DNA of 64,000 nt from Candidatus Woesebacteria bacterium. Its GTDB lineage: Bacteria > Patescibacteriota > Microgenomatia > UBA8517. Positions within the stretch are counted from its first letter, which is position 1, and each line of letters begins with the position of its first letter. The position numbers and the translations under genes were made by a program. Under the pieces are notes generated by a model. That model had not been told where the DNA came from. It made no database searches and worked only from the letters and a program-made list of their open reading frames with translations. This document shows positions 38,540 to 63,978 of this stretch, piece after piece. The stretch is taken from NCBI GenBank assembly GCA_013374835.1, contig CP055307.1, positions 471,315 through 535,314 of the forward strand. Direction: 5' to 3'.

Positions 38540-39322
38540 ATGGATCCAAGGAAATATTTTATGCGTTATATTAGGACAGCTCCTTTCTCGCATGCAGTTT
38601 GGAGGGGAATGGAGGCCGGAATATTTGCTGAGTTTGAGAAATTTGTAAAAGGTGACATCCTTGATATAGGTTGTGGTTTTGGTGAATTCGCTGGTATTGT
38701 GTTTAATAATATGGTTGAGGTGGGGATTGATATAAACAAGAAAGATTTAGTTAAAGCAGCTTCTGGAAAAAGTTATAAAAATCTTATTTTGGCTGATGCC
38801 AGAAAGCTTCCTTTTGATGACAATAGTTTTGATTGTGTTGTTTCAATAAGCACTTTAGAGCACATAAAAAAAGTTGATAAAGTGATAGAAGAAGTAGAAA
38901 GGGTGCTTAAAAAGGGCGGCATATTTATATTTAGCGTGCCTACTAATGTTTTGAATAAGCATTTGTTTTTTCCAAGCTTTTTAAGAAAAATTGGTTTAGG
39001 AGAGTTGTCGAATCTATATGTGAAAGTTTTTCATTGGGCTTTTAATCATGAGAATATTTATAGTAAAGAAAAGTGGATGAATAAAATTTTTTCCGGATTT
39101 AAGGTTTTGGACTATCGCGGTACTATAAATATTAATCAAATCAGAATTTTTGAGTTATTTCTTCCTTTGGCGCTTTTAACACAATTTAATCGGAAAATTT
39201 TTGGAAAGAGACTTCTTTTCTCGTTTAAACTTCGGGAAATGATATTTGAGAAAATATTTTCTATTTCTTTGAAGGGTAATTTAACCGATGCGAATGTAAT
39301 TATCTTAGCGACTAAAAAATGA
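38540..39322 (+). CDS. Class I SAM-dependent methyltransferase
   Basis: ILDIGCGFGEF is motif I; an acidic motif II is present. Confidence 0.7.
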   Translation: MDPRKYFMRYIRTAPFSHAVWRGMEAGIFAEFEKFVKGDILDIGCGFGEFAGIVFNNMVEVGIDINKKDLVKAASGKSYKNLILADARKLPFDDNSFDCVVSISTLEHIKKVDKVIEEVERVLKKGGIFIFSVPTNVLNKHLFFPSFLRKIGLGELSNLYVKVFHWAFNHENIYSKEKWMNKIFSGFKVLDYRGTININQIRIFELFLPLALLTQFNRKIFGKRLLFSFKLREMIFEKIFSISLKGNLTDANVIILATKK

Positions 39323-40158
39323 AAGTTTCAAAGTGCAGGATTTGCGGGTCTGATAATTTAGCTTTAGTTTATAGCAATCAAAAATATAAAATATTTAAAT
39401 GCTTATTGTGTGGTTTTGGGGTTTTAATGCCTTATCTGAAAATAAAAAAGGCGCATTTGATTTACCAAGAGAATTATTTTTTGGACAAGAAGGAAAACTA
39501 TTATCTTTCGGACGCTAAGCGTAAATACAGCAAAGCGAAGAAATATTTTCGCAAGGGAGGGAAGGTGCTAGATTACGGATGCGGGCTTGGTGACTTTATA
39601 GGAGAATGTAAGAGAAGAGATAAAAGCTTAAGTCTTTTTGGATTTGATATTTCTAGATATGCATCTGTCATTACCTCAAAGAATTATAACGTTGAAGTAA
39701 AAACAGGTATTTTATCAAAGAATTTATATAGACAATCATTTTTTGATACTATCGTTTCCTTTGATGTTATTGAGCATGTACCCAATTTTGAAGACTTGTT
39801 AGTCAAATTCAACTTCTGGTTAAAAGAAGGTGGTTATTTGCTACTTACTACACCCAATATTGAAAACTGGGATGCGAAAATCTTAGGTAGGTGGTGGTAT
39901 GGTTATTCGAAAATTCCAGAGCATATTAATTATTTTTCAAAAAAGTCTTTAAGGATGCTTCTTGAGAGAAATGGCTTCGAAGTGCTCGAAATAAAAACTT
40001 GGGGTTTTACTAGAAGTCTAGATTTTTATTTATTTAAAGTTTTCGGGATGTTTAGTCTCTCAAAAATAGGCTTGAGCAATATTGGCAAGATCAATATTTT
40101 TTTGCCTATGGTAGACGTCTTTGTGGCAGCAAAAAAAATTGGAGACAAAAATGAGTGA
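39319..40158 (+). CDS. Class I SAM-dependent methyltransferase with an N-terminal zinc ribbon
   Basis: CRICGS...CLLCGF followed by VLDYGCGLGDF. Confidence 0.7.
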   Translation: MKVSKCRICGSDNLALVYSNQKYKIFKCLLCGFGVLMPYLKIKKAHLIYQENYFLDKKENYYLSDAKRKYSKAKKYFRKGGKVLDYGCGLGDFIGECKRRDKSLSLFGFDISRYASVITSKNYNVEVKTGILSKNLYRQSFFDTIVSFDVIEHVPNFEDLLVKFNFWLKEGGYLLLTTPNIENWDAKILGRWWYGYSKIPEHINYFSKKSLRMLLERNGFEVLEIKTWGFTRSLDFYLFKVFGMFSLSKIGLSNIGKINIFLPMVDVFVAAKKIGDKNE

Positions 40159-41758
40159 AAGAATTTATTGGATTTTTTTTGTATTTTTGGTTGTTTTGTT
40201 CGTTTTCAATCTCTTTATAAATATTTCACATCCACTTTTATGGAATGATGAAGGTGAGACAGTAATGTTTGGGGAGAGGATACTCACTTATGGTTATCCT
40301 AAAGTAAACGACGGAAAAAATATTTTGAATTTAACCGAGGTCCCCGATAAAAATGTTGGAGTGAAAGAGGGTGTAGATGCATGGATACATCTAGGATGGC
40401 TTCAGTATTATGTTTCTGCTTTAGGCGTATTTGTCGCTAGTTTTTTTGACGATCCTTACTTGAAGACTGCTTTTTTAAGGATGCCTTTTGCGTTTTTTGG
40501 TCTTTTGGGTGTTTTTATAAATATTTTACTTATTTTTTTGCTTCCTATTGGAAGGAGGAGTAAACTTTTTGTGTCCTCGTTTTTTATTTTTATTGAGTTG
40601 TTAAGCGTATTTCTTGTTTTACATTTACGTGAGGCTAGACACTATTCACTGACTTACTTTTTGTCGTCTTTAGCCTTTTTTATATATGTGAGGTATAGGT
40701 TTTTTGGAAAAAACAAAAAAACTTATTTTTTAATTTTGCCTTTTGTGTTGGTTTTTCTTTTCAACTCTTTCTTTCCTGTTTTTATAACAGTTAATTTTTA
40801 TTTTTTAATTTACGAGTTTTTTATGTTTTTAATTAGAAAAAACACGATGAAATCTTTTATTCCGCTTATTTTATCGATTATCTTAGTTATTCCATTTTTA
40901 TTTTTTTATGAGGTTTTTTACATTTCGAGCGAGGTTGCGAGGTATTTCGGTAATTCATTTTTTATTTACTTAAAAAATATTATGTTTATATTTGAGTTTT
41001 TATTTAGGGAGGAGTTTTTAATCCTGCTTTTTGTTGTAAAGATTTTTATTTTTTTTCTTGCGGCTGATGATTTTTGGTGGTTCTACAAAAAAAATAAATT
41101 ATTTCAAATTTCATTTTTTTTGACTGGTTATTTTTTGTTTTTTTTATTGGTAATTGCAAAGATGCCTTACCAGTTTGAGAGATATTTGGTATCTTTACAA
41201 CCCATCATTGCGATGACTATCGTTTTGGATTTTTTGATTCTTTATAGAGCCATCTCCAAAAAAGGCGGCACGTTAAAACATTTCTTGTTATTTGTTTTTC
41301 CCCTTTTTTTAATCTGCAATATATTTAAAGTAGGTAATTTAACTGGTAGGATTTATGAATTGACCCACGAATATCAAGGTCCGGTTGATTATATTGTTTC
41401 ATATATAAAAGATAAGTACGAGAATACAGATAATCTTGTAATAGCAACGAATTATGAAGAGCATGTATTGATGTACTACCTTGGAAGTCGTGTAATTGTG
41501 GGATATGTAGGGAATAATATTGAGAAGGATTCATTGGAAAAGCCTGATATTGTGATTCCAAGAAGAGGTAGACCAAATTACAAAAAGGTGCTTTATGATT
41601 TTTTAAATAAGTGGGACTATGAAGAAGTAAAACTTCCAGTATATGACTATTCCTACAATAATATACCCGAGCTTACACTTTTTTACCCACATCTATTTAA
41701 GACAAAGCTTCCAGAATCTAGAGACGATTATCTTACTTTTTATATACTTAAAGAATGA
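40151..41758 (+). CDS. Polytopic membrane protein (GT-C-like, putative glycosyltransferase)
   Basis: About 12 TM helices; located in the glycosylation locus. Confidence 0.45.
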   Translation: MSERIYWIFFVFLVVLFVFNLFINISHPLLWNDEGETVMFGERILTYGYPKVNDGKNILNLTEVPDKNVGVKEGVDAWIHLGWLQYYVSALGVFVASFFDDPYLKTAFLRMPFAFFGLLGVFINILLIFLLPIGRRSKLFVSSFFIFIELLSVFLVLHLREARHYSLTYFLSSLAFFIYVRYRFFGKNKKTYFLILPFVLVFLFNSFFPVFITVNFYFLIYEFFMFLIRKNTMKSFIPLILSIILVIPFLFFYEVFYISSEVARYFGNSFFIYLKNIMFIFEFLFREEFLILLFVVKIFIFFLAADDFWWFYKKNKLFQISFFLTGYFLFFLLVIAKMPYQFERYLVSLQPIIAMTIVLDFLILYRAISKKGGTLKHFLLFVFPLFLICNIFKVGNLTGRIYELTHEYQGPVDYIVSYIKDKYENTDNLVIATNYEEHVLMYYLGSRVIVGYVGNNIEKDSLEKPDIVIPRRGRPNYKKVLYDFLNKWDYEEVKLPVYDYSYNNIPELTLFYPHLFKTKLPESRDDYLTFYILKE

Positions 41759-43284
41759 TTGGAGAATTAAAGAGGATAAGATCAAGAGAATGGTTTTTAA
41801 TAATTTTTTCTTTTTGTCTTTTATTTGCTTTTAGATATAACAGCTTTAACTCACCATTTGAAAGAGATGAGGGAGAGTATGCATATTCCGCGTGGATTTT
41901 GAAAAATGGCGGTACTTTGTATAAAGATGCCTTTTTACAAAAGCCGCCCATGGTTGTTTATACTTATTTGGCTGCTCAGATGATATTTGGTGACAATGTT
42001 TGGGCGCCGCGATTAATTGCTTTTATTTTTTTAATATTAACACAGGTCACTATCGGATTGATCGCTTTGAGGATTTATGGGGGAGGTTCTGCCGCTATTT
42101 CTATGATTGTTTTTTCCATACTGTCCAATTTTCCACCACTAATGCCCTTTGCTGCGAATACCGAGATTTTTATGATTCTTCCCATAAGCCTTATTCTTTA
42201 TTTTTATGTTTTATATAAGGATGGACTAAATATTTTTTATTTTGTAATAGCTGGCTCGTTATCTGCAGCCGGTATATTTTATAAGCCTATTTGTATCGGA
42301 GCGATTTTGTTTATAGTTTTTTACTGGTTATATGAGATTTATAAAAAGGATCGCCGGCTATTGGATATTTTTGAACCCGCTTTCTTTTTTTGGTTTTCTT
42401 TTATTTTGGCTAGTATTGTTATTTTACTTCCTTTGATAAAAAGCGGGGCGTTTCCGTATTTTTGGAAGCAAGTTGTTTATTATAACTCTTTGTACGCAAA
42501 AGCCTATGGATTTGGGTTGTCAAACTTTTTTATACAGTTAAAGCCTTTTATAAAATATCAATGGGCGGGATTATCCTTGATCTTTATTTCATTTTTTATT
42601 CCTTGGCCTAAAAGAAGCTATTTTCTGTTTTTAGTATTTATAAGTTTATTAACTATTTATCAGTCTCCAATAGGTCATTATTATTTGATTTTGACGCCCT
42701 TTTTGGCCATAGTAATTTCTAAGGCAATTGATGAGATTTCGGAAAAATTTGAGATTAATTATATTTATTTGGGAAGCATATATGTGCTTTTTTCTATATT
42801 ACCTTTTCGTGAACAGTTTTTTATGACACCCAGTGAAATAAATACTTGGGTTTACGGCACAGCAAATCCTTTTATTGAAGCATATGAAATTAGAAAAAAG
42901 ATAATTGAAAATTCAAATCCCGAAGACAAAATCCTTATTGCTGGATCTGAACCAGAGATTCTTTATTATTCTAAAAGAATGAGCGCAAGCAGATTTGTTA
43001 TTGTTTATCCTCTAATAATTGACACAAAAGAGGCAGAAAATTATAGGGAAGAGTTTATATCTGAAATTGAAAGAAAACCAAAGCTTATAGTCTATTCGAA
43101 CATGGATCACAGCGGATTTATCGGGGATGCTGATCTTGACGATGTGCGAAGCTTGGTCAATGATTTAATAGAGAAAGACTACGATTTTGTCGGCGGTTAT
43201 TATTGGCAGAATGGTAAACTTCGCTGGATAAGTGAAGACGTTGAAAGGCGATATTTGAGCCTCGTTTTGTATAAAAGAAAATGA
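41755..43284 (+). CDS. GT-C fold glycosyltransferase (ArnT/PMT-like)
   Basis: Polytopic. The FERDEGEYAYSAW acidic first-loop motif resembles the DE motif of GT39/GT83. Confidence 0.5.
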   Translation: MIGELKRIRSREWFLIIFSFCLLFAFRYNSFNSPFERDEGEYAYSAWILKNGGTLYKDAFLQKPPMVVYTYLAAQMIFGDNVWAPRLIAFIFLILTQVTIGLIALRIYGGGSAAISMIVFSILSNFPPLMPFAANTEIFMILPISLILYFYVLYKDGLNIFYFVIAGSLSAAGIFYKPICIGAILFIVFYWLYEIYKKDRRLLDIFEPAFFFWFSFILASIVILLPLIKSGAFPYFWKQVVYYNSLYAKAYGFGLSNFFIQLKPFIKYQWAGLSLIFISFFIPWPKRSYFLFLVFISLLTIYQSPIGHYYLILTPFLAIVISKAIDEISEKFEINYIYLGSIYVLFSILPFREQFFMTPSEINTWVYGTANPFIEAYEIRKKIIENSNPEDKILIAGSEPEILYYSKRMSASRFVIVYPLIIDTKEAENYREEFISEIERKPKLIVYSNMDHSGFIGDADLDDVRSLVNDLIEKDYDFVGGYYWQNGKLRWISEDVERRYLSLVLYKRK

Positions 43285-44906
43285 ATAATTTTAAGCTATC
43301 CAATTTAAATGTAGCATTAATCATTTTTTCACTGGGATTCGCAGTTTATTTTCAAACTCTTTTTTTTGGATTTACTTATTTAGATGACAATGTACTTATC
43401 CTTGATAACTTATTTTTTCTTAAGAATTTGGGAAATATTTTTAATGCTTTTAAGCTGGAAGTGTTTCATATACTTCACTCATCAGCAGCTTATTATCGCC
43501 CAATTTTGACGATTTCGTTTATTCTGGATGCACAGCTGTCGGGGGAGAGTGCTTTTTTTTATCATCTTACTAACGTTTTTATCCATTTAGTTGCCAGTTT
43601 CGGAGTTTTTTTGTTTTTTACGAGCATAGGGTATAAGAGAGTTTTATCATTTTCGGCAGGAATTTTATTTCTTGTTCATCCAGTTCTTGTACAGGCCGTT
43701 GCCTGGATACCGGGGAGGAATGATTCTTTGCTGTCTTTATTTGTTATTTATTCTTTTTATTTTTTGATTCGGTATATAAAAGAGAGTAAAAGTAGATTTT
43801 TGATTTTATATTTTCTTTTTTATTTTTTTGCTATTTTTACAAAAGAATCGGCTGTGCTTTTTCCTTTCGCAGCAGTTTTTTACTTAATAATTTTAAAAAA
43901 GGAGAAAGTTATTTCGGATAATATTTTCAAAATTTTTTTGGGTACTTTTTTTATATTCTTGGTTTGGATTTATTTGAGATCCGCTGCATTAGTGAACCCA
44001 GTCCGCTATGATTTGGCAACCTCTTTGTTTGCTATTTTTGAAAACAAGCTTGCTATTTTTCTTTATATTGGTAAAATTTTTTTGCCAATTAATTTAACCA
44101 CCCTCCCCGTACTTTCGGATTCTAATTTACTGATTGGGCTGTTTACTACCTCTATTTTTTTAGCAATAAGCCTTTACTTTGGTAGAAAAAGTTTGGGAAC
44201 GGTTTTTTTTGGTTATTTTTGGTTTCTTCTTTTTTTGTTGCCGTCGTTTATAAGGCCTAACACTGAGTACGTCTCTGATTTTATAGAGCATCGTGTTTAT
44301 CTTCCTATTATTGGTATTTTTTGGATTTTGCTTGAGGTTTATAGATTAAATGAGAAGAAAATATCCCCGAAAGTTATAAAGGTGGTTTTATATATTGTGA
44401 TGATTTTTTTTATTGCCATTACGATTGTTCATTCGAGAAATTACATAAACGGCATTACTTTTTGGGAAAAAGCAGCTTTGGATTCTCCAAGCCATCCTTT
44501 GGCTCATAAAAATTTGGGTGCAATGTATTACCTTAATAACGATTTAGAAAAGGCCGAGAAATCATTTTTAAGAGCTCTGGAAGTTTATGAGTATGAAAAG
44601 ATGGTTCACAATAATCTAGCGCTTATTTATATGAAAAGAGGGGAGACTGAAAAAGCGGCATTAGAGTTTGAGCGTGAGCTTGAAATAAACCCTTATTATG
44701 ACAATGCTTATTATAATTACGGCAATTTGTATTATTCAAAGGGGGAGCGGGAAAGGGCGTTTGAAATGTGGTCGCGCGCTCTTAAGATTAACCCTGATCA
44801 TACGGGGGCTTTAAGAAATATATTTGGCTATTATACAGAAAATGGGGATTATGAGAAAGCGAAGTATTATTATAATGAACTTATTAAACGCGGTGTGAAA
44901 CCATAA
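43281..44906 (+). CDS. GT-C-like membrane domain fused to C-terminal TPR repeats (TMTC-like)
   Basis: N-terminal polytopic region (LDDNVLILDN loop) and C-terminal TPR repeats (AHKNLGAMYY..,NNLALIYMKRGE..,YNYGNLYYSKGE..). Confidence 0.55.
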   Translation: MNNFKLSNLNVALIIFSLGFAVYFQTLFFGFTYLDDNVLILDNLFFLKNLGNIFNAFKLEVFHILHSSAAYYRPILTISFILDAQLSGESAFFYHLTNVFIHLVASFGVFLFFTSIGYKRVLSFSAGILFLVHPVLVQAVAWIPGRNDSLLSLFVIYSFYFLIRYIKESKSRFLILYFLFYFFAIFTKESAVLFPFAAVFYLIILKKEKVISDNIFKIFLGTFFIFLVWIYLRSAALVNPVRYDLATSLFAIFENKLAIFLYIGKIFLPINLTTLPVLSDSNLLIGLFTTSIFLAISLYFGRKSLGTVFFGYFWFLLFLLPSFIRPNTEYVSDFIEHRVYLPIIGIFWILLEVYRLNEKKISPKVIKVVLYIVMIFFIAITIVHSRNYINGITFWEKAALDSPSHPLAHKNLGAMYYLNNDLEKAEKSFLRALEVYEYEKMVHNNLALIYMKRGETEKAALEFERELEINPYYDNAYYNYGNLYYSKGERERAFEMWSRALKINPDHTGALRNIFGYYTENGDYEKAKYYYNELIKRGVKP

Positions 44907-44930
44907 TGAAAATTGTGATAAACTAGTTTT

Positions 44931-45500
44931 ATGTTTAAAGAATTGAAAGAAAATTATTTTCTTAGACTTTTATGGATTTTCTCGAGACCTTATCATCTTT
45001 TTGAAGATTTAAGGGGAGATTTGGGAATTCGCCAGAGCGTGCTATTTTTTGTATTTGTTTCTGTCTTGAGTTTTTTGTTGTCGATTTTTGATATTTTGAT
45101 CATAAGACCAATTCTTTCTTATTACGTTCCTCAAATTTACCCCGAGTTTGAACTAGGCCTTAGTTGGTTTATGTTGCCTTCTTATTTGATAGCCAGTATT
45201 ATTTTATTTGTTAGTCTTTTTTTGTATTCAGGGATTTTATACTTAATTTTTAAGCTTTACAAGAGAGGTGAAGATTATTCTTTGGCCTTAAAAATATTTG
45301 TTTATTCACAGACCCCTTTTATTCTTTTTAGATTTATTCCTAATATAAATATTGTAACGATAATTTATTCCTTTGTGCTCCAGATATTGGCGGTTAAAAA
45401 GTTTATGAAGGTTAGTCTGAGAAAATCTCTTCTCATCAATTTTTCATATCTGGCTTTGGTTGCTGCTTTTATATTGTTGAATATTTATATAGATATATAA
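44931..45500 (+). CDS. Small polytopic membrane protein (Yip1-like)
   Basis: 189 aa with 5 TM helices. Confidence 0.35.
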   Translation: MFKELKENYFLRLLWIFSRPYHLFEDLRGDLGIRQSVLFFVFVSVLSFLLSIFDILIIRPILSYYVPQIYPEFELGLSWFMLPSYLIASIILFVSLFLYSGILYLIFKLYKRGEDYSLALKIFVYSQTPFILFRFIPNINIVTIIYSFVLQILAVKKFMKVSLRKSLLINFSYLALVAAFILLNIYIDI

Positions 45501-45512
45501 AAAAATCATTAA

Positions 45513-46640
45513 ATGGAAAAAATTGTAATTATAATGCCAACATATAATGAGTCTGAGAATATTGGACCAATGATTCACGAACTTTTTGAAAAGGAATTCC
45601 CAAGGATTAAGAATGCCTCAATGCATTTATTGGTTGTTGACGATAATTCGCCTGACGGGACGGGAGAGATTGTGAAGGAGGCGTCAAAGAAATATAAAAA
45701 TCTCCATTTGCTTTCGGGACAAAAGCAGGGTCTTGGAATGGCTTATGTGAGAGGTATGAAATATGCGATGAAAAAGCTTTCAGCAGACGCTGTTATTGAG
45801 ATGGACGCAGATTTTCAACACCCGCCAAAATTTGTAAAACCCATGGTTGAAGCTTATTTAAATGGAGCAGACTACGTCATTGGATCGCGCTATATTCCTG
45901 GCGGATCTGTACCTAAGGAGTGGGCAATACATAGAAGAGCTATAAGCTATTTGGGTAATTTATTTATACGTTTTGTGCTTTTGAAGCCAAGATTGCACGA
46001 CCTTACAACGGGTTTTAGGCTGACTAAAGTAAAGGGTGTCTTGGATAAGATTGAGCTTGATAATTTAATGGAATTGAAGCGTTTTGCCTATAAGGTAGAT
46101 TTGCTTTATCAATCTGTTAAGAATGCTAAGAAAGTAAAGGAAGTACCTCTACAATTTGCTCCAAGAACAAAAGAGGCGTCAAAATTCAGCATGAAAGAGA
46201 TGGTTTCTACTTTTAAGGTAGCGATTATTCTTGGTATTAAGGATAAAATCAGATTTTTAAAATTCGCAACCGTTGGTTTTGTGGGTTTTGTTGTCAATTT
46301 TTTGTTTTTGCGTGTATTTAGATCGATAGGACTCGGCGAAGTATTTGTTTGGTTAATGGCAACAGAGATGGCGATAATCAGTAATTATACTTTTAACAAT
46401 ATATGGACTTTTAAGGAGGCGAAGATATCGGGATTTGTTACAACTGCTAAGAAGTTTTTGCAGTTCAACCTGACTTCTGCCGGGGCACTTATTATTCAAT
46501 CAGTATTTGGTCCTTTAGGAGTAAGGGTAGTTGGTGAGAGATATGATTATCTAGTTCTTGCTTTTGTAGTTGCTTTCATGGTGCTTCCTTACAATTATTT
46601 TATGTATAATGTATTTATTTGGAAGACATGGAAGCCATAA
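45513..46640 (+). CDS. GT2 polyprenol-phosphate glycosyltransferase (Dpm1-like) fused to a GtrA-like membrane domain
   Basis: IIMPTYNESENI and VVDDNSPDGT are GT2 motifs. The C-terminal ~120 aa carry 4 TM helices in a GtrA-like arrangement. Confidence 0.75.
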   Translation: MEKIVIIMPTYNESENIGPMIHELFEKEFPRIKNASMHLLVVDDNSPDGTGEIVKEASKKYKNLHLLSGQKQGLGMAYVRGMKYAMKKLSADAVIEMDADFQHPPKFVKPMVEAYLNGADYVIGSRYIPGGSVPKEWAIHRRAISYLGNLFIRFVLLKPRLHDLTTGFRLTKVKGVLDKIELDNLMELKRFAYKVDLLYQSVKNAKKVKEVPLQFAPRTKEASKFSMKEMVSTFKVAIILGIKDKIRFLKFATVGFVGFVVNFLFLRVFRSIGLGEVFVWLMATEMAIISNYTFNNIWTFKEAKISGFVTTAKKFLQFNLTSAGALIIQSVFGPLGVRVVGERYDYLVLAFVVAFMVLPYNYFMYNVFIWKTWKP

Positions 46641-55253: not shown

Positions 55254-55283
55254 ACAATTATGATATATAGTGACTAGTACTTA

Positions 55284-56259: not shown

Positions 56260-57792
56260 ATGAGATTCTTGAGAATGCATTTTTTCTCCTTTTTTTGTTT
56301 TTTAGTAATTATTTTTTCTGGATTTATTTTGCGGCTTATTAATCTTACTTTATTGCCTGTTTTTGCAGATGAGGCGATTTATATTAGGTGGTCACAAGTA
56401 ATGTCTGCTGAGCCTACTTTGCGGTTTTTACCGCTTTCAGACGGAAAACAGCCTCTTTTTATGTGGGTTTTAATGTTTTTAGTTAATAGAATTTCAGATC
56501 CTTTATTTGCTGGTAGAATAATTTCCGTTTTTTCAGGTATTGCAAGCTTAGTTGGAATATGTTTGATAAGTTATGTTTTGTTTAGATCCAAAGCGGTTTC
56601 TTTGGCGTCTGGCTTGCTCGTTTCAGTGTCCCCTTATTTTGTTTTTTTTGACAGAATGGCTCTGGTTGATTCGATGCTTACAATGTGGTTTATCTGGACT
56701 TTTGTGTTTGGCATATTAACCGTTAAAACACGAAGGCTTGATATGGCAATATTTAGTGGGTTTTGTCTCGGTTTTGCTTCGTTGACAAAATCGTCGGCGA
56801 TTTTTGCAGCTTTATTGTTGCCAAGTACGCTGATACTTGGTAGTTATTCAAAAAAGAGAAAGATCATGTTTTATGAATTTTTATACATTATGTTTTTGCT
56901 CGCCTTTTCTTATTTGGTTGCAGTTTCTATGTATAATATCCAGCGGTTGGGTCCAAATTTTCATCTTCTTTCTTCAAGGACAGCTGATTATGTTTTTCCG
57001 ATAAGTCATTTGTGGGAAAATCCCTTAGATCCTTTTAAGCCTCATATTTATCAGTCTTTTGAGTGGATTTTCATGATGGGGCCGTGGGGTATGTTTTTAC
57101 TTACCGCATATAGCCTTTTATTTATTAATAGAAAAAATTCAAGAGAAAAAGTATTTCTTCTTTTTTGGTTTTTAATACCTTTAATTATCCAGGCAATGTA
57201 TGCAAAAGTTTTTACGGCTCGATATTTGCTTTTTGTAATTCCACCTTTTTTTGTATTAGGGGGAAGCGCATTTTTGGATTTTAATAAGAAAAGTTTGCTG
57301 CCCAAAACTTTGATTGGGGTGATGCTGTTTTTTTTGTTTCAGGCTTTGAGTTTTGATTACAAGCTTTTAACCAATCCTTCAGTTGCTAATCTACCAAGAA
57401 GCGAGAGGTCCGGATATCTTGAGGAATGGACGGCAGGTACCGGGATTAAGGATGTCGCGGAATATATAAAAAAAGTAAGCACAGAAAACCCTGATGTCCA
57501 GATTGTAGTAGGAACAGAAGGGTATTTTGGAACGCTTCCTGATGGATTATTGATGTACCTTCAGGGTACCCCCAGAGTCGTTACGATCGGGGTTGGGCTA
57601 AATATTAAGGAAGTACCAGAGCCTTTGGTTGAATCCCGTGCTTTCGGGAATAAAACTTATCTGGTGGTTAATGACTCGAGGCTTAAAATTATTGATCCCG
57701 AGTCTCATGGATTAAAGCTTATCGAAAGTTTTGAAAAAGCCCAAAAGCCCGATGGCGGGCAAGAACGTTTGCTGTTTTTTGAGCTGATATGA
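56260..57792 (+). CDS. GT-C fold glycosyltransferase (ArnT-like)
   Basis: FADEAIYIRWSQ motif, about 12 TM helices, and a C-terminal soluble domain. Confidence 0.55.
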   Translation: MRFLRMHFFSFFCFLVIIFSGFILRLINLTLLPVFADEAIYIRWSQVMSAEPTLRFLPLSDGKQPLFMWVLMFLVNRISDPLFAGRIISVFSGIASLVGICLISYVLFRSKAVSLASGLLVSVSPYFVFFDRMALVDSMLTMWFIWTFVFGILTVKTRRLDMAIFSGFCLGFASLTKSSAIFAALLLPSTLILGSYSKKRKIMFYEFLYIMFLLAFSYLVAVSMYNIQRLGPNFHLLSSRTADYVFPISHLWENPLDPFKPHIYQSFEWIFMMGPWGMFLLTAYSLLFINRKNSREKVFLLFWFLIPLIIQAMYAKVFTARYLLFVIPPFFVLGGSAFLDFNKKSLLPKTLIGVMLFFLFQALSFDYKLLTNPSVANLPRSERSGYLEEWTAGTGIKDVAEYIKKVSTENPDVQIVVGTEGYFGTLPDGLLMYLQGTPRVVTIGVGLNIKEVPEPLVESRAFGNKTYLVVNDSRLKIIDPESHGLKLIESFEKAQKPDGGQERLLFFELI

Positions 57793-59042
57793 GATTTTTA
57801 AAAGAAAACTGGTTCAAATGGCTTCTGATTGGTTTAGCCTTAAGGCTTGTTTTAATGCCGATTACGGCTCATCCTGATCTTTGGGGGCATTCATTTACTG
57901 CTTATTTTTTTACAAATTTTAAGGTACTTAATCCTTATGAGCATTTAATGTCTTTGTCTTCGGACCATCCTTTGGTAGTAAACTTTGGTGTTTCGGATAT
58001 TTTTATTTATCCTCCTTTAACATATTTTACTTTGGGAATTTTTAGATTTTTGGTAAGCCCGTTATTGGATAGCCAATTTGTACCATGGCTTATGGAAAAT
58101 GTGGGGGAGTATTATTTGTATCACGGCGTGCATTGGCAGGTTTTTTGGTTTAAGTTTCCATATTTAATAGTAGATTTTTTAGCTGCGTTTTATTTTTGTC
58201 GATTGTTTGACAATAAAAAGAGCCGAGAACAGGCATTTATTTTGTGGATGATTAATCCTTTGACGATTTATTCTACTTTTATGATGGGGCAAATTGATAT
58301 TTTACCTACTTTTTTTGTGATTATCGCACTTTTTTTTGCGAAAAGGAAAAAATACGCCGAGTCTCTTTTGGCTCTTGGAGTTGGTGGTTCTTATAAAATG
58401 TTTCCGCTCTTATTGGTTCCTCTTTTTGCTTTTTTGTTCGGAAAAAGCTTTTGGGAAAGATGTAAATATTTGTTTTACGGATTCCTTCCTTTTGCGGCTT
58501 TTAGCATACCTTATGTCGGATCGAGGGCCTTTCGGCAGATGGTGCTTTTTACGCCCAAAAGCCAGAAGATGCTTTTTATGAGGTTTAACGTTTCGGGAGC
58601 AGAGGCTGTTTTGCCATTTGTTTTTCTCTTGTTTGTAATCTATTTTTATTCTTATTATCAGGCAAGGCGAAATATGCTCGTGCCTTTGTCAACAACGATT
58701 ACTCTTTTAATTTTCAGTTTAACTCATTATCATCCTCAGTGGTTTTTATGGGCAACTCCCTTTTTGTTTTGGGTGTTAGTTAAAGAAAATTTTCGGCCTT
58801 GGTTATTGGTCGCAACGCTTTTTGTTTGCTGGACGGTTCTTTTATTCTTTTTTGAACCGTCTTTGTCTTGGGGTCTTTTTGGAATTCTGGACCCATCACT
58901 ATTAAAAACCGCTTCTTTGGCTGATATCTTGGTAAAATATGTGGATGTATTTCAGTTTAAAAGTATAGTAAGGAGCGTGTTTGCCGGTGCTTCTTTATAT
59001 TTATCTTTTTCTATGATTAAAAATGAGAAAGAAAAAAAATAA
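57789..59042 (+). CDS. Polytopic membrane protein (GT-C-like)
   Basis: 417 aa with about 11 TM helices. Confidence 0.45.
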   Translation: MRFLKENWFKWLLIGLALRLVLMPITAHPDLWGHSFTAYFFTNFKVLNPYEHLMSLSSDHPLVVNFGVSDIFIYPPLTYFTLGIFRFLVSPLLDSQFVPWLMENVGEYYLYHGVHWQVFWFKFPYLIVDFLAAFYFCRLFDNKKSREQAFILWMINPLTIYSTFMMGQIDILPTFFVIIALFFAKRKKYAESLLALGVGGSYKMFPLLLVPLFAFLFGKSFWERCKYLFYGFLPFAAFSIPYVGSRAFRQMVLFTPKSQKMLFMRFNVSGAEAVLPFVFLLFVIYFYSYYQARRNMLVPLSTTITLLIFSLTHYHPQWFLWATPFLFWVLVKENFRPWLLVATLFVCWTVLLFFFEPSLSWGLFGILDPSLLKTASLADILVKYVDVFQFKSIVRSVFAGASLYLSFSMIKNEKEKK

Positions 59043-60687
59043 TTTTGACATAGTAAGACTTATTCTTCTTTTCTTTTTGATAGTCCCAACTTTTCGTTGG
59101 CTTTTGAGACCCGGTTATTTTAGTATGCATGATGATATGCAGGCGATGAGAGTTCTTCAGTTGGGTAAGTGCATTGAGGATTTGCAGATTCCCTGCCGTT
59201 GGGTGCCTGATATGGGGTATGGTTATGGATATCCTCAATTTAATTATTACGGACCTTTGCCGTACTATTTAATGTATTTTGTTTCTTTGTCAAACTTTGG
59301 GGTTTTAGAGAGTGTTAAAGCGGGATTTGTGCTCAGCATAATAGTTGGAGCTTTTGGAATGTATCTTTGGGGGCGAAAACTTTGGGGAAGCTATGGGGGT
59401 TTTATTTCTTCGATTGTTTATGCTTATTTGCCTTATAAGGCTTTAGATATTTACGTCAGGGGAGCGATGTCTGAGTCTTGGGCATTTTCAATTCTGCCTT
59501 TTGTTTTTTGGTCGATCGAGCTATGTTTCTCACGAAACAAACATGCAGTGATTTATCTTTCCCTATCCTTCTCTGCTCTTTTGATGTCGCACAATATTAC
59601 TACAATGATTGCTATGCCTTTTATTGTTTTATGGGTTTTAATTCGTTTCTTAACTATAAAAGGAAACGATCGACTTCAATTTGTAAAAAATTTATTTATT
59701 GGATTTTTTTTGGGATTTTTAACATCCTCTTTTTATCTGATTCCCGCTTTTTTGGAGAAGAAATATGTGCATGTTGAGACTTTAACTTACGGATACTTTG
59801 ATTATCGAAGACACTTTGTAGGTTTGTTTCAGCTTCTTTTTTCAAGCTTTTGGGGATATGGTTCTTCGGAGATCGGGCCTTATGACGAGCTTAATTTAAG
59901 CATTGGATTGGTCCCTCTTATTTTGCCTATTTTGGGACTTTTGGGGCATTTTTTGGTGAAAAAAAACCGAAAATTTTATTTGTTTCTTACTCTTTTTCTT
60001 TTTGGTTGGGCTAGTTTGTTTTTAATACACCCCAGATCCGTTTTTATTTGGAACAGTCTTCCTCTTTTAAAATATGTTCAATTTCCTTGGCGTTTCTTGG
60101 CTCTTTCCGGCTTATTTTTAAGTGCGTGCTCTGGTTTTTTTACTTATTTAATTGTAAAAGCAAAATTTCGGACAGTTCTGCTTATAACCGGGATAATTGT
60201 GTTTTTATATTCAAGTTATTTTCAACCGAAAGACATGTTTATTATTAGTGATAATGAAAAATTTTCAGGTGAACTTTGGGAGAAGCAAAGAACGATAAGT
60301 ATTTTTGACTATTTACCTAAGTCTGCTCAGTTTCCGCCGGGCGAGGCGGCTTCGGATAAACCTATCCTCATTGACGGAGATATTGATATTTTATCTTATT
60401 TTAAAGGAAGCAATTGGTATAGGTGGAAAATAAGTGTTAGCCGTGAAAGCGTTATGAAACTACCAATTATCTATTTTCCAAACTGGTCCGTTTGGATAGA
60501 CGGGAGTGTTTCCTCTTTTTCATACGATAATCCTTTAGGTCTTATAACGATTCGGGTACCACCTGGTAAGCATGAGATATATGCAAAACTTTTGGATACC
60601 AATATCAGGAAGGTGTCAAATTATATGTCATTTTTAGGATTGATACTAATTTCTTATTTATTGTATAAAATTAAGACCGATGATTAA
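59023..60687 (+). CDS. Polytopic membrane protein, paralog group 2 (member 1)
   Basis: YFSMHDDMQAMRVLQ..IPCRWVPDMGYGYG..FNYYGPLPYY...YVRGAMSE, shared with the next two genes. Confidence 0.5.
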   Translation: MRKKKNNFDIVRLILLFFLIVPTFRWLLRPGYFSMHDDMQAMRVLQLGKCIEDLQIPCRWVPDMGYGYGYPQFNYYGPLPYYLMYFVSLSNFGVLESVKAGFVLSIIVGAFGMYLWGRKLWGSYGGFISSIVYAYLPYKALDIYVRGAMSESWAFSILPFVFWSIELCFSRNKHAVIYLSLSFSALLMSHNITTMIAMPFIVLWVLIRFLTIKGNDRLQFVKNLFIGFFLGFLTSSFYLIPAFLEKKYVHVETLTYGYFDYRRHFVGLFQLLFSSFWGYGSSEIGPYDELNLSIGLVPLILPILGLLGHFLVKKNRKFYLFLTLFLFGWASLFLIHPRSVFIWNSLPLLKYVQFPWRFLALSGLFLSACSGFFTYLIVKAKFRTVLLITGIIVFLYSSYFQPKDMFIISDNEKFSGELWEKQRTISIFDYLPKSAQFPPGEAASDKPILIDGDIDILSYFKGSNWYRWKISVSRESVMKLPIIYFPNWSVWIDGSVSSFSYDNPLGLITIRVPPGKHEIYAKLLDTNIRKVSNYMSFLGLILISYLLYKIKTDD

Positions 60688-62362
60688 GAAAATATCTATA
60701 TTTATAATTATAATTTTGTCGTTGCCGACTTTTTATTATCTAACCAGGCCTGGATATTTTAGTATGCACGACGACCTTCAGATTATGAGGATTTATGAGC
60801 TTGAGAGATGTTTTAATGACGGTCAGGTTCCTTGCCGCTGGTCACCCGATATGACTTTTGGTTACGGACAAGCGATGTTTAATTTTTATAGTGTGCTTCC
60901 TTATTATTTTGGTTTTTTTATAAAAAGTATATTTGCAATAAGTATTGTTGATACGGTAAAAATACTTTTTCTTTTATCATTGGTGATTGGAAGTATTGGA
61001 ATGTTTCTTCTTTCTTCTGAGTTTTGGGGAGTTTTGATTGGTATCTTATCCTCTATATTTTATGCTTATGCTCCATATAGGGCTTTGAATGTTTATGTAA
61101 GAGGCGCATTGGCCGAATCATTCGCCCTTGCTTTTTACCCTTTTGTTTGGTACTCGCTTTATAAATTGATAGAAAAGAAGCAATTTAAATGGATGGCTTT
61201 ATCATCCATTTTTTTAGCGTTTCTTTTTATGACACACAATATCTCGACTATGATTTTTTTTTCTTTTAGCGTTTTATGGATTATTTTTTGGATAATTAAA
61301 TTTAGAAAGGTTTCGGCTTTACAGGATCTATTTTTGTCGGGCGTATTGGGTTTGGGTATGGCATCTTTTTTTCTGGTGCCTGCTTTTTTTGAAAGAAGTC
61401 TTATAAAGGATGATCTTTTTACTCGAGATTATTTTGAATTTCATGCACATTTTGTGTCATTAAGACAGCTTTTTTGGGATAGAGAATGGGGTTTTGGCCC
61501 TTCGATATTCGGAGACCGCGATGATTTGTCTTTTCAAGTGGGGATGGTTCACGCTGCCAGCTTGTTTTTAGGCGGAACAGTTTTTATTATTAGGTTTTTG
61601 TTTTTGAAAAAGCATGATTATAAGGACTATTTGTTTGCTGTCTTGGGAGCTTCTTCCGTTATTGCTCTTTTTATGGCACATTCGAGATCCACATCTTTGT
61701 GGTTTTTGATACCGATTCTTTCTTATGTGCAGTTTCCATGGAGGTTTATTGGTATTTGTGTTTTTTTAATTTCTTTGTCTGCTGGTTATCTTTTTCAAAG
61801 ATTGGGCGTATTTAGATATTTTTTTATTTTTTTGGTCGGGGTGGCTTTAGTTTTTTTTAATTATTCTTATTTTAAGCCGGAGCACTTGTTTTATTCCGAG
61901 ACCGATGAAACAAAACTTTCAGGAGAACTTTTTGATATTCAAAGAAAGGCGGCTCCATTGGACTATTTGCCTGTTACGGTTGACAGAGCGCCAGAAGAAT
62001 TAGCTCCTGAAAAACCTTTTTTTGAATCAGGTTTTGGTGACATAAGAAATTTTGTTTATCGAACCAATTATTTTTTCTTTGATGCGGAAGTTTATGAGAA
62101 AGGAAGAATTTTGGTACCAATTATTTATTTTCCTAGGTGGGTAATATTAGTAAATGACAACCTTTATGAGTTTGAAATTCAAAAAGATAACGGACTTATT
62201 GCCCTAAATCTTGAAAAGGGCAAATATATTGTGAGGGGACGCTTTGAAAATACGCCAATAAGAGATTTTGCTAACGGCCTAAGTATAATTTCTTTTACAG
62301 TTTTATTTTTTTTGTACATTGCTTATATTAATAAAAATAAAGTGTTATGGTACAAAGATTAA
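60680..62362 (+). CDS. Polytopic membrane protein, paralog group 2 (member 2)
   Basis: YFSMHDDLQIMRIYE..VPCRWSPDMTFGYG..YVRGALAE. Confidence 0.5.
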   Translation: MIKKISIFIIIILSLPTFYYLTRPGYFSMHDDLQIMRIYELERCFNDGQVPCRWSPDMTFGYGQAMFNFYSVLPYYFGFFIKSIFAISIVDTVKILFLLSLVIGSIGMFLLSSEFWGVLIGILSSIFYAYAPYRALNVYVRGALAESFALAFYPFVWYSLYKLIEKKQFKWMALSSIFLAFLFMTHNISTMIFFSFSVLWIIFWIIKFRKVSALQDLFLSGVLGLGMASFFLVPAFFERSLIKDDLFTRDYFEFHAHFVSLRQLFWDREWGFGPSIFGDRDDLSFQVGMVHAASLFLGGTVFIIRFLFLKKHDYKDYLFAVLGASSVIALFMAHSRSTSLWFLIPILSYVQFPWRFIGICVFLISLSAGYLFQRLGVFRYFFIFLVGVALVFFNYSYFKPEHLFYSETDETKLSGELFDIQRKAAPLDYLPVTVDRAPEELAPEKPFFESGFGDIRNFVYRTNYFFFDAEVYEKGRILVPIIYFPRWVILVNDNLYEFEIQKDNGLIALNLEKGKYIVRGRFENTPIRDFANGLSIISFTVLFFLYIAYINKNKVLWYKD

Positions 62363-63978
62363 TTTTTTTTGTTTTTTTAATTTTTTTGTTGCCGGCTGTG
62401 CTTCCACTTGTTAAATCTGGTTTTTATGAGCCCCATGATCTTCATCATTTAGCAGATATTTATGAGATGTATAGGGCAATAGAATCTCGGCAGATTCCAC
62501 CGAGATGGGGTCCTGATTTTATGTATGGAAGCGGGTATCCTTTATTTAATTTTTATTATCTAACCCCATTTTATTTGGGTGCTTTGTTTTACTTTATCTT
62601 TGGGAGTTTGACTCTTAGTTTTAAGATGGTGTTGTTGGTGAGTGCTGCTAGCGGATTTGTTTTTATGTTTTTATTTCTTCGAGAGTTTTTTGATCGCTAC
62701 TCTTCTTTTGCTGGATCCGTGCTTTTTTTGTACACCCCGTATCGGGCGGTTCAGATTTACGTAAGAGGCGCTATGGGAGAAGCGCTTGCTCTTTCTTTTT
62801 TTCCTTTGGTCTTGTTTTTTTTGGTTAAGCTTTATAAGGAGAAAAGCCACAGATATTTAGTTTTCTCAGCCTTTTCAATAGCAGTTCTTATATTAACGCA
62901 TAACTATTTTTGGGTACTTGCTTTTCCACTTTCCGTTTTGATGCTTTTTTGTATGGGTGTCCGGTTTGGTGATTTAAAAAGGTATGTAATTAGTTTTGTT
63001 TTTGCTATTGGTCTTTGTTTTTATTGGATTATTCCTGCCTTGGTTGAACAGAGATATGTAGGCAGTAAAACTCCGTTTTTATTAGTTGATCATTTTCCTT
63101 TTATCAAGCAGCTTATTTTACCGAGCTGGGGGTATGGAAGCTCGGTTTGGGGAGAGGGAGATGAGATATCTTTTCAGATTGGAATTCTTAACCTTTTAAT
63201 TATCGTTTTAGTATGTTTGTTTGCGGCTTTTAACTTTAGAAGATTGTTGAGAGATAAATATAGATATTTTTGGTTTTTAATGCCTTTAACTTTTTTTGTT
63301 TTGGTGTTTTTTATGAACATAAGATCTTACCCTATTTGGCAGATTATTCCTTTTTTTGATTTTATTCAATTTCCATGGAGGTTACTTATGTTTACAACGT
63401 TTGTTACATCTTTTTTGACGGCTCTTTTGATTAATGGGTTAAAAAGAGGAGCTTTTTTTGCTGTTTTATTATCTATTGCTGCGATTATAATTAATTATTC
63501 TTATTTTAAGCCTAGCAAGGTTGTTTATAAAAATGATGAAGTTTATTTGGAGCGTTTTTTTGAGAGCAAAGATTATAGCGAGGATTATTTGCTTTTGCCT
63601 ATTTGGAGTGAATCGCGTCCCAAACCATTTGATAGAAAGTACGGTATCGAAAAAGGGAGTGTGACAAAGGCTATAAATAAAAACAATCTTGAGTGGTATT
63701 TTGTTTATCAGTCTCCTAGTGATACTAGTCTTGAGTTTAGAAGTCTTTATTTCCCAGGATGGGGTGCGAAAGTTGATGGAGTTGAAATCCCTATACGGCC
63801 GACTGAGATTTACGGGCAGATTAGTGTTGAAGTGCCTGCTGGTGAGCATAGGATTGACTTTTTTTGGAGTGAGAATGCTATTAGATTGGTTTCTGATTTG
63901 ATAAGTGTATTTTCGATAATCGTTTTAGTATTTATAGTCGTTAAAAAGCCGAGATGGTGGATTTTGGGTTTGTCTTGA
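62347..63978 (+). CDS. Polytopic membrane protein, paralog group 2 (member 3)
   Basis: FYEPHDLHHLADIYE..IPPRWGPDFMYGSG..YVRGAMGE. Confidence 0.5.
   Translation: MVQRLIFFVFLIFLLPAVLPLVKSGFYEPHDLHHLADIYEMYRAIESRQIPPRWGPDFMYGSGYPLFNFYYLTPFYLGALFYFIFGSLTLSFKMVLLVSAASGFVFMFLFLREFFDRYSSFAGSVLFLYTPYRAVQIYVRGAMGEALALSFFPLVLFFLVKLYKEKSHRYLVFSAFSIAVLILTHNYFWVLAFPLSVLMLFCMGVRFGDLKRYVISFVFAIGLCFYWIIPALVEQRYVGSKTPFLLVDHFPFIKQLILPSWGYGSSVWGEGDEISFQIGILNLLIIVLVCLFAAFNFRRLLRDKYRYFWFLMPLTFFVLVFFMNIRSYPIWQIIPFFDFIQFPWRLLMFTTFVTSFLTALLINGLKRGAFFAVLLSIAAIIINYSYFKPSKVVYKNDEVYLERFFESKDYSEDYLLLPIWSESRPKPFDRKYGIEKGSVTKAINKNNLEWYFVYQSPSDTSLEFRSLYFPGWGAKVDGVEIPIRPTEIYGQISVEVPAGEHRIDFFWSENAIRLVSDLISVFSIIVLVFIVVKKPRWWILGLS

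Follow-up and report, generated by a model that had tools for sequence, protein, structure and literature searches.

A conserved cluster of GT-C glycosyltransferases and polyprenyl-phosphate sugar synthases in Candidatus Woesebacteria, with a likely role in building a surface glycan

We analyzed a stretch of 64,000 nucleotides (hereafter, the window) from a Candidatus Woesebacteria bacterium, a member of the candidate phyla radiation (CPR) with a genome of about 0.9 Mb (901,682 bp). The window covers positions 471,315 to 535,314 of contig CP055307.1 (assembly GCA_013374835.1). According to the map of open reading frames (ORFs), 20 genes span the region from 38.5 to 64 kb: 12 encode polytopic proteins with the glycosyltransferase C (GT-C) fold, three encode polyprenyl-phosphate sugar synthases of glycosyltransferase family 2 (GT2), two encode methyltransferases and three encode other proteins. 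On balance, we favor the reading that these 25 kb form the middle of a larger supercluster for a surface glycan, at least 45 kb long, with a core conserved across Candidatus Woesebacteria and a glycan as the acceptor of the transferred sugars.

The genes are listed below and are named hereafter by their first coordinate. For the GT-C proteins we also give the motif that follows the first transmembrane segment (TM1). Occurrences refer to 50 full-length loci (21.5 kb, with 10-kb flanks) from different species-level genomes, whose ORFs were mapped onto the window proteins.

34612-35331, 35304-36335, 36338-36964 and 36939-37847, plus strand: rmlA, rmlB, rmlC and rmlD of the dTDP-L-rhamnose pathway (Pfam NTP_transferase, GDP_Man_Dehyd/Epimerase, dTDP_sugar_isom and RmlD_sub_bind)
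37822-38502, minus strand: trmD, between rmlABCD and the GT-C block
38540-39322, plus strand: class I S-adenosylmethionine (SAM) methyltransferase, accessory (Methyltransf_11, 79.6 bits)
39319-40158, plus strand: SAM methyltransferase with an N-terminal CxxC...CxxC zinc ribbon, accessory (Methyltransf_23, 106.8 bits)
40121-41758, plus strand: GT-C fold with a C-terminal alpha/beta domain, accessory, without Pfam or NCBIfam model; motif WNDEGET
41755-43284, plus strand: GT-C, accessory (PMT_2, 31.3 bits, cut-off 26.1), with orthologues only in loci L009 and L016; motif ERDEGEY
43281-44906, plus strand: GT-C with C-terminal TPRs, accessory (PMT_2, 31.5 bits; TPR_1/TPR_2 at residues 407-535); motif YLDDN
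44931-45500, plus strand: Yip1-domain membrane protein with four transmembrane (TM) segments (Yip1, 43.1 bits), with weak relatives in 7 of 50 loci
45513-46640, plus strand: GT2 synthase with a 4-TM GtrA/DPMS_TM domain, core (Glycos_transf_2 plus GtrA_DPMS_TM, the latter 49.3 bits), in 45 of 50 loci
46619-47491, plus strand: soluble 290-aa protein of no known family, without Pfam or NCBIfam match even at E<=10, with orthologues in 19 of 50 loci
47758-48912, minus strand: compact, divergent 384-aa GT-C fold, core, without Pfam match, in 48 of 50 loci; motif NYDGP
48981-49727, plus strand: TM-less GT2 synthase, core (Glycos_transf_2, 109.9 bits), in 45 of 50 loci, its stop codon overlapping the start of 49727
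49727-51265, plus strand: GT-C, founder of a set of three paralogues, core (PMT_2, 41.9 bits); motif LGDEGRD
51262-52272, plus strand: DHH/DHHA1 NrnA-like phosphoesterase (NrnA, 87.7 bits, cut-off 350), in 38 of 50 loci
52205-53764, plus strand: GT-C, paralogue of 49727, core (PMT_2, 40.9 bits; BLAST to 49727, E 6.5e-32), in 49 of 50 loci; motif YDQGRD
53766-55253, plus strand: GT-C, paralogue of 49727 and 52205 (PMT_2, 22.7 bits, below the cut-off of 26.1), in 28 of 50 loci; motif HDQD
55284-56045, plus strand: TM-less GT2 synthase, core (Glycos_transf_2, 98.1 bits), in 50 of 50 loci
56260-57792, plus strand: ArnT-like GT-C, core (PMT_2, 35 bits; weak ArnT and TIGR03663 matches), in 49 of 50 loci; motif ADEAIY
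57789-59042, plus strand: GT87-like GT-C; motif HPDLW
59023-60687, 60680-62362 and 62347-63978, plus strand: three tandem PTPS_related (PF10131) GT-C proteins (41.4, 40.0 and 32.6 bits, cut-off 26.4); motifs MHDD, MHDD and PHDL

From 38.5 to 64 kb, all genes but 47758 lie on the plus strand, and neighbouring plus-strand genes mostly overlap by 1 to 20 nt (39319/39322, 41755/41758, 43281/43284, 49727/49727, 51262/51265 and 57789/57792), a packing as expected of operons. A promoter and terminator scan of the 44-64 kb region gave the same counts as shuffled sequence (64 vs 61; 20 vs 17.6) and did not delimit transcription units. The coordinates given in an earlier note, which had described this locus from its letters, match the ORF map, and the ATGs at 40151 and 52250, where genes 40121 and 52205 probably start, are also those chosen by the public gene caller. 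Its inventory of about 12 GT-C-like proteins, three Dpm1-like GT2 synthases (one fused to GtrA) and two methyltransferases was confirmed by Pfam and NCBIfam matches, folds and motifs. The zinc ribbon with which 39319 begins, the TPRs of 43281 and the acidic first-loop motifs, noted there for some of the proteins and present just past TM1 in 12 out of 12, were also correctly described. Other statements needed adjusting: rmlABCD is indeed upstream (34612-37847), but trmD intervenes on the opposite strand; the division of the locus into three gene classes accounts for most genes, but it omitted or under-described 44931, 51262 and the soluble 46619; and the locus delimited as 38540-63978 is real, but it continues past 63978, which is a mere window edge.

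On sequence features and predicted folds, all 12 polytopic proteins are GT-C proteins. Each of them has 5 to 10 TM segments by hydropathy and a D/E motif 10 to 25 residues past TM1. Pfam places PMT_2 above its gathering score in 41755, 43281, 49727, 52205 and 56260, and below it in 53766. Wherever at least 19 orthologues or homologues could be aligned, which was the case for eight families, the acidic motif is either invariant or conserved to 97% or more. Thus, W41, D43 and E44 are invariant in 40121, as are N49, D51, G52 and P53 in 47758, G41-D42-E43-G44-R45-D46 in 49727 (across 30 orthologues), and H36 and D37 in the PTPS_related trio, while YDQGRD of 52205 and ADEAIY of 56260 are both 98% conserved. 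Within the HDQD of 53766, H and the first D are invariant, the last D is 97% conserved and Q 76%. For 41755, 43281 and 57789, motif conservation is based on just two to four orthologues (in 57789, HPDLWGH is conserved in four).

Regarding the relationships among these proteins, 53766 matches 52205 with an E value of 6e-24 and 49727 with 1e-17 by BLAST, and the members of the PTPS_related trio are 28-37% identical to each other. The profile of the PTPS_related family matched that of the PMT_2-type 49727 family with a probability of 97% in hhalign, and the 40121 family matched the 49727 family with 82% (E 1e-5) and with the acidic motifs in register. The 47758 family gave no significant hhalign link to the 49727, PTPS_related or GT87 proteins, and it is by its fold that it joins GT-C.

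Sequence comparison could not by itself place the GT-C proteins, so fold prediction was required. Structures were modelled for two of them, 47758 and 40121, using AlphaFold2 on alignments of database homologues, and the models, both of them helical bundles, were then searched with Foldseek. The model of 47758 (pLDDT 92.1, pTM 0.92) matched GT-C proteins at ranks 1-37 and 40, namely STT3, PglB, ALG9, ArnT, ALG6, AglB, Pmt4, ALG12, PIG-M, PIG-U, PimE, EmbA/B and AftA, with transporters trailing at a probability below 0.15. For 40121 (pLDDT 96.0, pTM 0.94), ranks 1-22 and several later ones were GT-C proteins, with ALG12/ALG9, PglB, ArnT, STT3, AglB, Pmt4, Emb, AftB and DPY19 as top matches, and transporters and G-protein-coupled receptors appeared only at a probability below 0.15. 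At E<=1e-30, the 40121 family counts 434 representatives out of 1.84 billion sequences. The 47758 family gave 1,935 matches, some of them labelled ‘Gpi18-like mannosyltransferase’ or carrying PF13231. After 47758 there is also a 91-aa ORF (47477-47752, minus strand) that is called as 81 aa in public assemblies.

By comparing the scores with family cut-offs, we can conclude that no protein of the block belongs, by sequence, strictly to GT39 or GT83. The GT39 PMT model (PF02366) gave 21.9 bits for 49727 and 18.2 bits for 56260, both below the cut-off of 22.7, and no MIR domains were found by Pfam. The ArnT equivalog PRK13279 gave 22.4 bits for 56260 against a cut-off of 567, ArnT being otherwise a fold-level match for 47758 and 40121 only. 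GT87 (PF09594) matched 57789 with a marginal score of 26.8 bits against a cut-off of 25, over model positions 1-162 of 237. Of the families against which the earlier note proposed to classify the proteins, GT2 and, marginally, GT87 are thus represented by sequence, whereas GT39 and GT83 are not. In 43281 the membrane domain matched PMT_2 only, and no TMTC-specific model was reported. At E<=10, Pfam returned nothing usable for 46619, 40121, 47758 and two proteins described below (264 and 565 aa) from beyond the window end.

The three GT2 proteins have PgfS, Dol-P-hexose transferase, ArnC, PpgS, AglJ, GtrB and DPMS as their nearest NCBIfam and PDB relatives. The first of them, 45513, matches the Pyrococcus furiosus DPMS (5MLZ) over its full length, including the membrane domain (E 1.4e-43, residues 3-356 against 24-365), and presents the signature EMDADFQHPP. 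From its sequence, 45513 is probably a polyprenyl-phosphate hexose synthase, with mannose as the favored sugar. The closest PDB matches of 48981 are GtrB (3.7e-15), ArnC and DPMS, with PgfS and Dol-P-hexose transferase in NCBIfam, while those of 55284 are DPMS (1.5e-12), GtrB and ArnC. PgfS is the top NCBIfam match of all three, at about 70 bits against a cut-off of 500; NCBIfam scores that far short of the equivalog cut-offs do not tell which sugars are used. A GtrA/DPMS_TM domain was found solely as the C-terminus of 45513, and no free-standing GtrA was found in the cluster. Each synthase has a GT-C neighbour (45513/47758, 48981/49727 with overlapping stop and start codons, and 55284/56260), and these pairings are kept in 45 to 50 of the 50 loci. 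The one observation that points to the use of a polyprenyl-(di)phosphate sugar donor by the GT-C proteins is this adjacency of three synthase homologues.

We then looked at conservation by scanning species-representative genomes with 49727 (tblastn), which gave at least 200 relatives, the best 80 being 47-64% identical over their full length. The best ones were labelled, nearly all, Candidatus Woesebacteria, Microgenomates or Patescibacteria. Titles reading ‘uncultured Gammaproteobacteria’ look like placeholder labels, since these loci have the gene order and the identity range of those labelled Woesebacteria. The recurring order, with variable members in brackets, is [rmlABCD], trmD (minus strand), GT2-GtrA, (46619), 47758 (minus strand), GT2, GT-C 49727, (DHH), GT-C 52205, (GT-C 53766), GT2 55284, GT-C 56260, (GT87) and PTPS-type GT-C. 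Its core consists of three GT2 and four to six GT-C genes, each GT2 adjoining a GT-C, with a median per locus of 5.5 GT-C and three Dpm1-like GT2 in 21.5 kb. The rmlABCD genes lie upstream of the cluster in 13 to 22 of the 50 loci, a count limited by flank length. Because it recurs in 50 full-length loci, the arrangement is far beyond chance. Among viral contigs we found no relative of the 49727 family, and we therefore rejected the idea that phages carry the module as they do gtrABC.

The relatives also hold other extra GT-C families at the same site. Judged by sequence appearance only, two GT-C-like families that are not in the window (493 aa with SHDDFFHF, and 434 aa) occur in five to eight relatives, and a MacB-like trio (ABC permease, ATPase and periplasmic-adaptor-like protein) lies upstream of the cluster in about 15. 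The DHH/DHHA1 gene stands between GT-C genes, is triplicated in loci L014 and L033 and has no evident role in glycosylation; it may be a hitch-hiking housekeeping gene.

The first part of the block, 38540-45500, behaves differently from the core. Parts of it recur in no more than two or three relatives, and it has the lowest G+C content of the window (0.30-0.34). On these sequence data, we read it as an accessory insertion, a lineage-variable decoration module. Outside the CPR, a 40121-family GT-C stands with a Dpm1-like GT2, a DegT aminotransferase and a methyltransferase in two unrelated genomes, a deltaproteobacterial contig and GCA_048500075.1. Identities of the deltaproteobacterial proteins to those of the window are 35% for the GT2 (with 45513), 32% for the methyltransferase (with 38540, over 111 aa) and 36% for the GT-C (with 40121). 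This module is, by analogy, ArnB/ArnC/ArnT-like, and as such lends independent support to a model of donor synthases paired with transferases. Its pairing of a methyltransferase with a 40121-family GT-C would also account for the two methyltransferases that precede 40121 in the window. The module was absent from the Omnitrophota and Myxococcota contexts of the 40121 family. Its appearance is that of an ArnB/C/T-like system not described so far, perhaps for a methylated amino sugar. The module is held by loci L088 (7003-11710) and L090 (172-9758), and in L090 the GT-C gene is duplicated, with two B12-binding radical SAM genes in between.

Past the window end the locus runs for at least another 15 kb, as read on a Logan contig that covers 15.6 kb downstream. 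After 62347 come a 556-aa PMT_2 protein (minus strand), a 264-aa protein of no known family and a Wzx-like flippase (Polysacc_synt_3, 182 bits), followed by a 565-aa membrane protein, three GT2 and a GT4, and a 785-aa YfhO. Then come a 514-aa protein of no known family, a methyltransferase with two more GT2, and another PMT_2 protein truncated by the end of the locus. At least 34 relatives keep the stretch of Wzx, 565-aa protein and GT2 in synteny behind the PTPS genes. Counted from rmlA up to the final gene covered, the cluster spans about 45 kb, around 5% of the 0.9-Mb genome, and holds at least 15 GT-C, three Dpm1-like GT2, five other GT2, one GT4, one Wzx and three methyltransferases.

The polytopic 565-aa protein (15576-17270 in L004, the same as 10001-11698 in L085) carries an invariant GPNGHDGxWH and always stands behind the Wzx-like gene. 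It has 1,388 homologues; among the 120 listed, all are unnamed or hypothetical, without a meaningful Pfam match, and every named source is a lineage of the Patescibacteria group. The family showed no significant hhalign link to the 49727 or 40121 families. It is a candidate polymerase (Wzy), ligase or further GT-C.

Some functions were looked for and not found. The WWDYG motif of oligosaccharyltransferases was absent from all window frames and from nine downstream L004 proteins up to the partial YfhO, and the idea of N-glycosylation was rejected for this reason. No O-oligosaccharyltransferase of the Wzy_C type turned up in the Pfam annotation of the 45 kb, and neither the 64-kb window nor the 15.6 kb downstream showed teichoic-acid or LtaS genes.

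Starting from the observed enzyme folds and families, motif conservation, adjacency and synteny, we infer the donor sugars, flipping, order of action and acceptor as follows. On the cytoplasmic face, 45513, 48981 and 55284 would load monosaccharides from nucleotide sugars onto polyprenyl phosphate. The lipid-phosphate sugars would then be flipped across the membrane, the candidates for this step being the GtrA-like domain of 45513 and the Wzx-like protein past the window end. Outside, the GT-C proteins (12 in the window and at least three downstream) would transfer the sugars one by one, by means of the acidic motif in their first external loop. The adjacency of each synthase with a GT-C suggests three cognate donor-transferase modules (45513/47758, 48981/49727 and 55284/56260), organized as in gtrB-gtrC, arnC-arnT and csbB-yfhO, and the extra paralogues would append further residues. 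Cytoplasmic GT2 and GT4 enzymes would assemble the glycan itself on a carrier lipid, drawing on dTDP-rhamnose supplied by rmlABCD; after export, it would be lengthened and branched on the outside. The lipid-linked sugar-donor pathway proposed in the earlier note thus holds on the enzyme classes and the relatives of the GT2 proteins.

As for the acceptor, analogy with known pathways inclines us, with some reserve, to prefer a lipid- or wall-linked glycan over a protein. We do so because rmlABCD lies upstream and Wzx, five GT2, a GT4 and YfhO lie downstream, a context largely conserved in relatives; because known systems with many GT-C proteins extend glycans; and because there are four to five GT-C proteins per synthase, with no WWDYG motif and no Wzy_C in the Pfam annotation. 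To our knowledge, the only known pathways with many GT-C enzymes (lipomannan, lipoarabinomannan and arabinogalactan of Corynebacterineae, the lipid-linked oligosaccharide of the endoplasmic reticulum (ER), and glycosylphosphatidylinositol) extend glycans and not proteins. In the Corynebacterineae, many different GT-C enzymes jointly extend these glycans (PMC3485146, PMC2157549).

Several points weigh against this reading of the cluster. In the 45 kb we saw neither a priming phosphoglycosyltransferase of the WecA/WbaP type nor an LCP ligase or a recognisable Wzy, so that the pathway to a glycan acceptor is incomplete as seen. The PMT_2 scores are low (31-42 bits), and the profiles of the 47758, PTPS_related and 49727 families, as well as 56260 alone, found no match among PDB sequences at E<=1. 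Donor sugars, flippase activity and acceptor are all predictions drawn from the letters of the genes. Besides, the TPR-bearing 43281 and PgfS as the top match of the GT2 proteins are compatible with protein acceptors. Finally, housekeeping genes (trmD, an RNase H-like gene and the NrnA-like DHH gene) lie within the synteny, and the conserved order may in part reflect the general collinearity of genomes in this lineage and not functional coupling.

One could also argue that the GT-C enzymes put polyprenyl-phosphate sugars on Ser/Thr of pilins, S-layer proteins or adhesins and then elongate them, a possibility that we consider rather improbable. PgfS heads the NCBIfam matches of the three GT2 proteins, but at the low score already given; the PMT_2 model is matched by six GT-C proteins, but this broad GT-C model takes in ArnT-like transferases acting on lipids and glycans as well, and the GT39 model, at 21.9 and 18.2 bits, stays short of its cut-off of 22.7, with solved PMT structures unmatched by sequence. 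The TMTC-like architecture of 43281 (GT-C plus TPR) belongs to the accessory block and not to the conserved core. The first 33 kb of the window hold a type IV pilus set (PilB, PilC, PilM and several pilins), but pilus genes lie beyond the 10-kb flanks of the related loci, where an upstream CAP-domain gene alone is shared. Moreover, the bacteria known to us to O-mannosylate proteins use one or two GT-C enzymes, not fifteen. For the acceptors named in the earlier note (pilins, S-layer proteins and adhesins) we obtained no positive evidence.

Alternatively, the cluster could consist of at least three independent systems of the Gtr, Arn or CsbB-YfhO type, each adding one side-chain sugar to a different polymer that already exists (for example a teichoic-acid-like polymer, a lipid or peptidoglycan) and held together only by the collinearity of Woesebacteria genomes. 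This is possible, though we would not bet on it. It would fit with every GT2 having its own GT-C partner, with trmD, the RNase H-like gene and DHH sharing the conserved synteny, with the different extra GT-C families that relatives hold at the site, and with the downstream YfhO, of a family of teichoic-acid glycosyltransferases. Yet 12 to 15 GT-C proteins for three synthases imply that donors are shared, as is usual where a glycan is extended step by step. Both sets of paralogues (49727/52205/53766 and the PTPS_related trio) are tandem and tightly overlapping, and the absence of teichoic-acid and LtaS genes in the sequence covered also speaks against separate side-chain systems. That the polytopic proteins are instead transporters (an outcome that the earlier note had set against its own proposal), flippases or structural membrane proteins is effectively refuted. 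TIGR03663 (‘flippase activity-associated protein Agl23’) does match 49727 (40 bits) and 56260 (29 bits) weakly against a cut-off of 126, and the Pfam scores are modest; but every high-probability fold match is a GT-C, with transporters and receptors below 0.15, the acidic motifs of the catalytic loop vary little or not at all across the eight well-sampled families, and cognate donor synthases adjoin.

We also compared the cluster with known systems. Like the three-component systems (GtrA/GtrB/GtrC, ArnC/ArnT, CsbB/GtcA/YfhO, GacI/J/K/L and PPPRS/MATE/GT136), it combines a synthase with an adjoining GT-C predicted to act outside, and it has a GtrA-type domain (in 45513), a YfhO downstream and, elsewhere, a 40121 family accompanied by GT2, DegT and methyltransferase. 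Unlike them, it has three synthases and 12 to 15 GT-C proteins per block instead of one each, has no free-standing GtrA, has two TM-less synthases, and belongs to the core genome of a CPR lineage instead of being a phage-borne or serotype-variable add-on. In the PPPRS/MATE/GT136 system, it is a MOP/MATE flippase that flips the donor (Kelly et al. 2024, PMC11127046).

The resemblance to the lipomannan, lipoarabinomannan and arabinogalactan pathways of Corynebacterineae (Ppm1; PimE, MptA-D, EmbA-C, AftA-D; rmlABCD/WbbL) lies in the many GT-C enzymes that would act outside on a growing glycan with polyprenyl-phosphate sugar donors, in the linked dTDP-rhamnose pathway and cytoplasmic GT2 steps, in the TM-less Ppm1-like synthases, and in the presence of PimE, EmbA/B, AftA and AftB among the fold matches. 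In contrast, there is no orthology to Mpt, Emb or Aft at the sequence level, the cluster has no arabinose-donor genes of the UbiA/DprE type, and the genes form one block in a 0.9-Mb CPR genome, whereas those of mycobacteria are scattered in an actinobacterial one. With protein O-glycosylation systems (Ppm1/Pmt of GT39; PgfS/PgfM1/PgfE/PgfM2 of Streptococcus mutans; PMT and TMTC), the cluster shares a Dpm1-like synthase next to PMT_2-type GT-C proteins, the PgfS match and one TPR-bearing GT-C; it differs in scoring below the GT39 thresholds, in lacking MIR domains by Pfam and in having far more GT-C proteins than such a bacterial system needs. Finally, the lipid-linked oligosaccharide pathways of the ER and archaea (DPM1/ALG5, RFT1, ALG3/9/12/6/8/10, STT3/AglB) have equivalent cytoplasmic GT-A/GT-B steps, a MOP flippase (Wzx being comparable to RFT1) and outer GT-C enzymes using donors of the Dol-P-Man and Dol-P-Glc type; 45513 is a full-length homologue of archaeal DPMS, and ALG9, ALG12 and STT3 are top fold matches. 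Here, though, no STT3/PglB-type enzyme with WWDYG and no primer of the ALG7/WecA type was seen, and the fold similarity is at the superfamily level only (TM-score around 0.5-0.6, 10-16% identity).

The remainder of the window holds features of separate interest. Type IV pilus genes occupy 1741-12664 and 29431-32476, including PilB (1741), PilC (3420), a PilM-like gene (9723) and a VWA-domain protein (31304), with pilins or pseudopilins bearing GFTL[IV]E N-termini at 12164, 7846 (minus strand), 29948 and 30855. Inside the pilus block, an AdoCbl-II riboswitch aptamer (5500-5572, plus strand; 38.7 bits against a gathering score of 36.5) lies at the start of a 315-aa ORF (5503-6450) without family match; this TTG-start ORF probably begins downstream of the aptamer and is a candidate B12-regulated uptake or binding gene. 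Between about 15200 and 23000, the GC skew drops to around zero or below and the AT skew turns positive, over short ORFs without known family and a weak IrrE/Peptidase_M78-like match at 16942; this region may be an integrated mobile element. A UbiA-family prenyltransferase (12757-13593) has an archaeal DGGGP synthase as its sole PDB match (E 0.02), in a host that is not expected to make quinones. We considered it as a polyprenyl-phosphoribose synthase and set the idea aside, given the weak DGGGP-synthase match and its position 25 kb from the block.

Knowledge of the cell surface of CPR/Patescibacteria is extremely scarce. In the literature on GT-C proteins and surface glycans of CPR and Woesebacteria, we found no description of this cluster. 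For a Saccharibacterium, glycolipids similar to phosphatidylinositol mannosides have been proposed on the basis of three Dpm1 copies and a GT87 (Starr et al. 2018, PMC6031116), and a 2024 perspective on the biology of Patescibacteria leaves glycans unmentioned (PMC11665869). The component superfamilies, their enzymology and the three-component logic are known. What is unusual is that three synthases and at least 15 GT-C proteins are gathered in one block, in the core genome of a CPR lineage of about 0.9 Mb, together with two GT-C families without a model (40121 and 47758) and conserved membrane proteins of 565, 514 and 264 aa. For comparison, Mycobacterium tuberculosis has under about 20 GT-C enzymes in 4.4 Mb, and Escherichia coli or Bacillus subtilis only a handful. 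The earlier note had called the number unusually high for a small genome; high it is for about 0.9 Mb, but as a conserved trait of the lineage and not a peculiarity of this genome.

With these results, the GT-C superfamily gains at least two unannotated families, one of which takes part, in several other phyla, in an ArnB/C/T-like module with a methyltransferase. The three synthases with their paired transferases are clonable targets through which a CPR surface glycan could be approached without a pure culture. To set aside about 5% of a minimal genome, and to conserve it, implies a product of importance to these cells, and this product may be the surface that meets hosts, phages or minerals. 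As a bolder and quite tentative proposal, Woesebacteria, and probably the wider Microgenomates, might build a major undescribed envelope heteroglycan (a lipoglycan or wall polysaccharide), largely outside the membrane, by means of about 15 GT-C enzymes and three polyprenyl-phosphate sugars. If true, a GT-C assembly line would be known from a second bacterial lineage besides the Corynebacterineae, here packed into a block of about 45 kb whose GT-C families without a model would be those of 40121, of 47758 and possibly of the 565-aa and 514-aa proteins, and the glycan could be the surface layer that attaches these ultra-small cells to hosts or particles.

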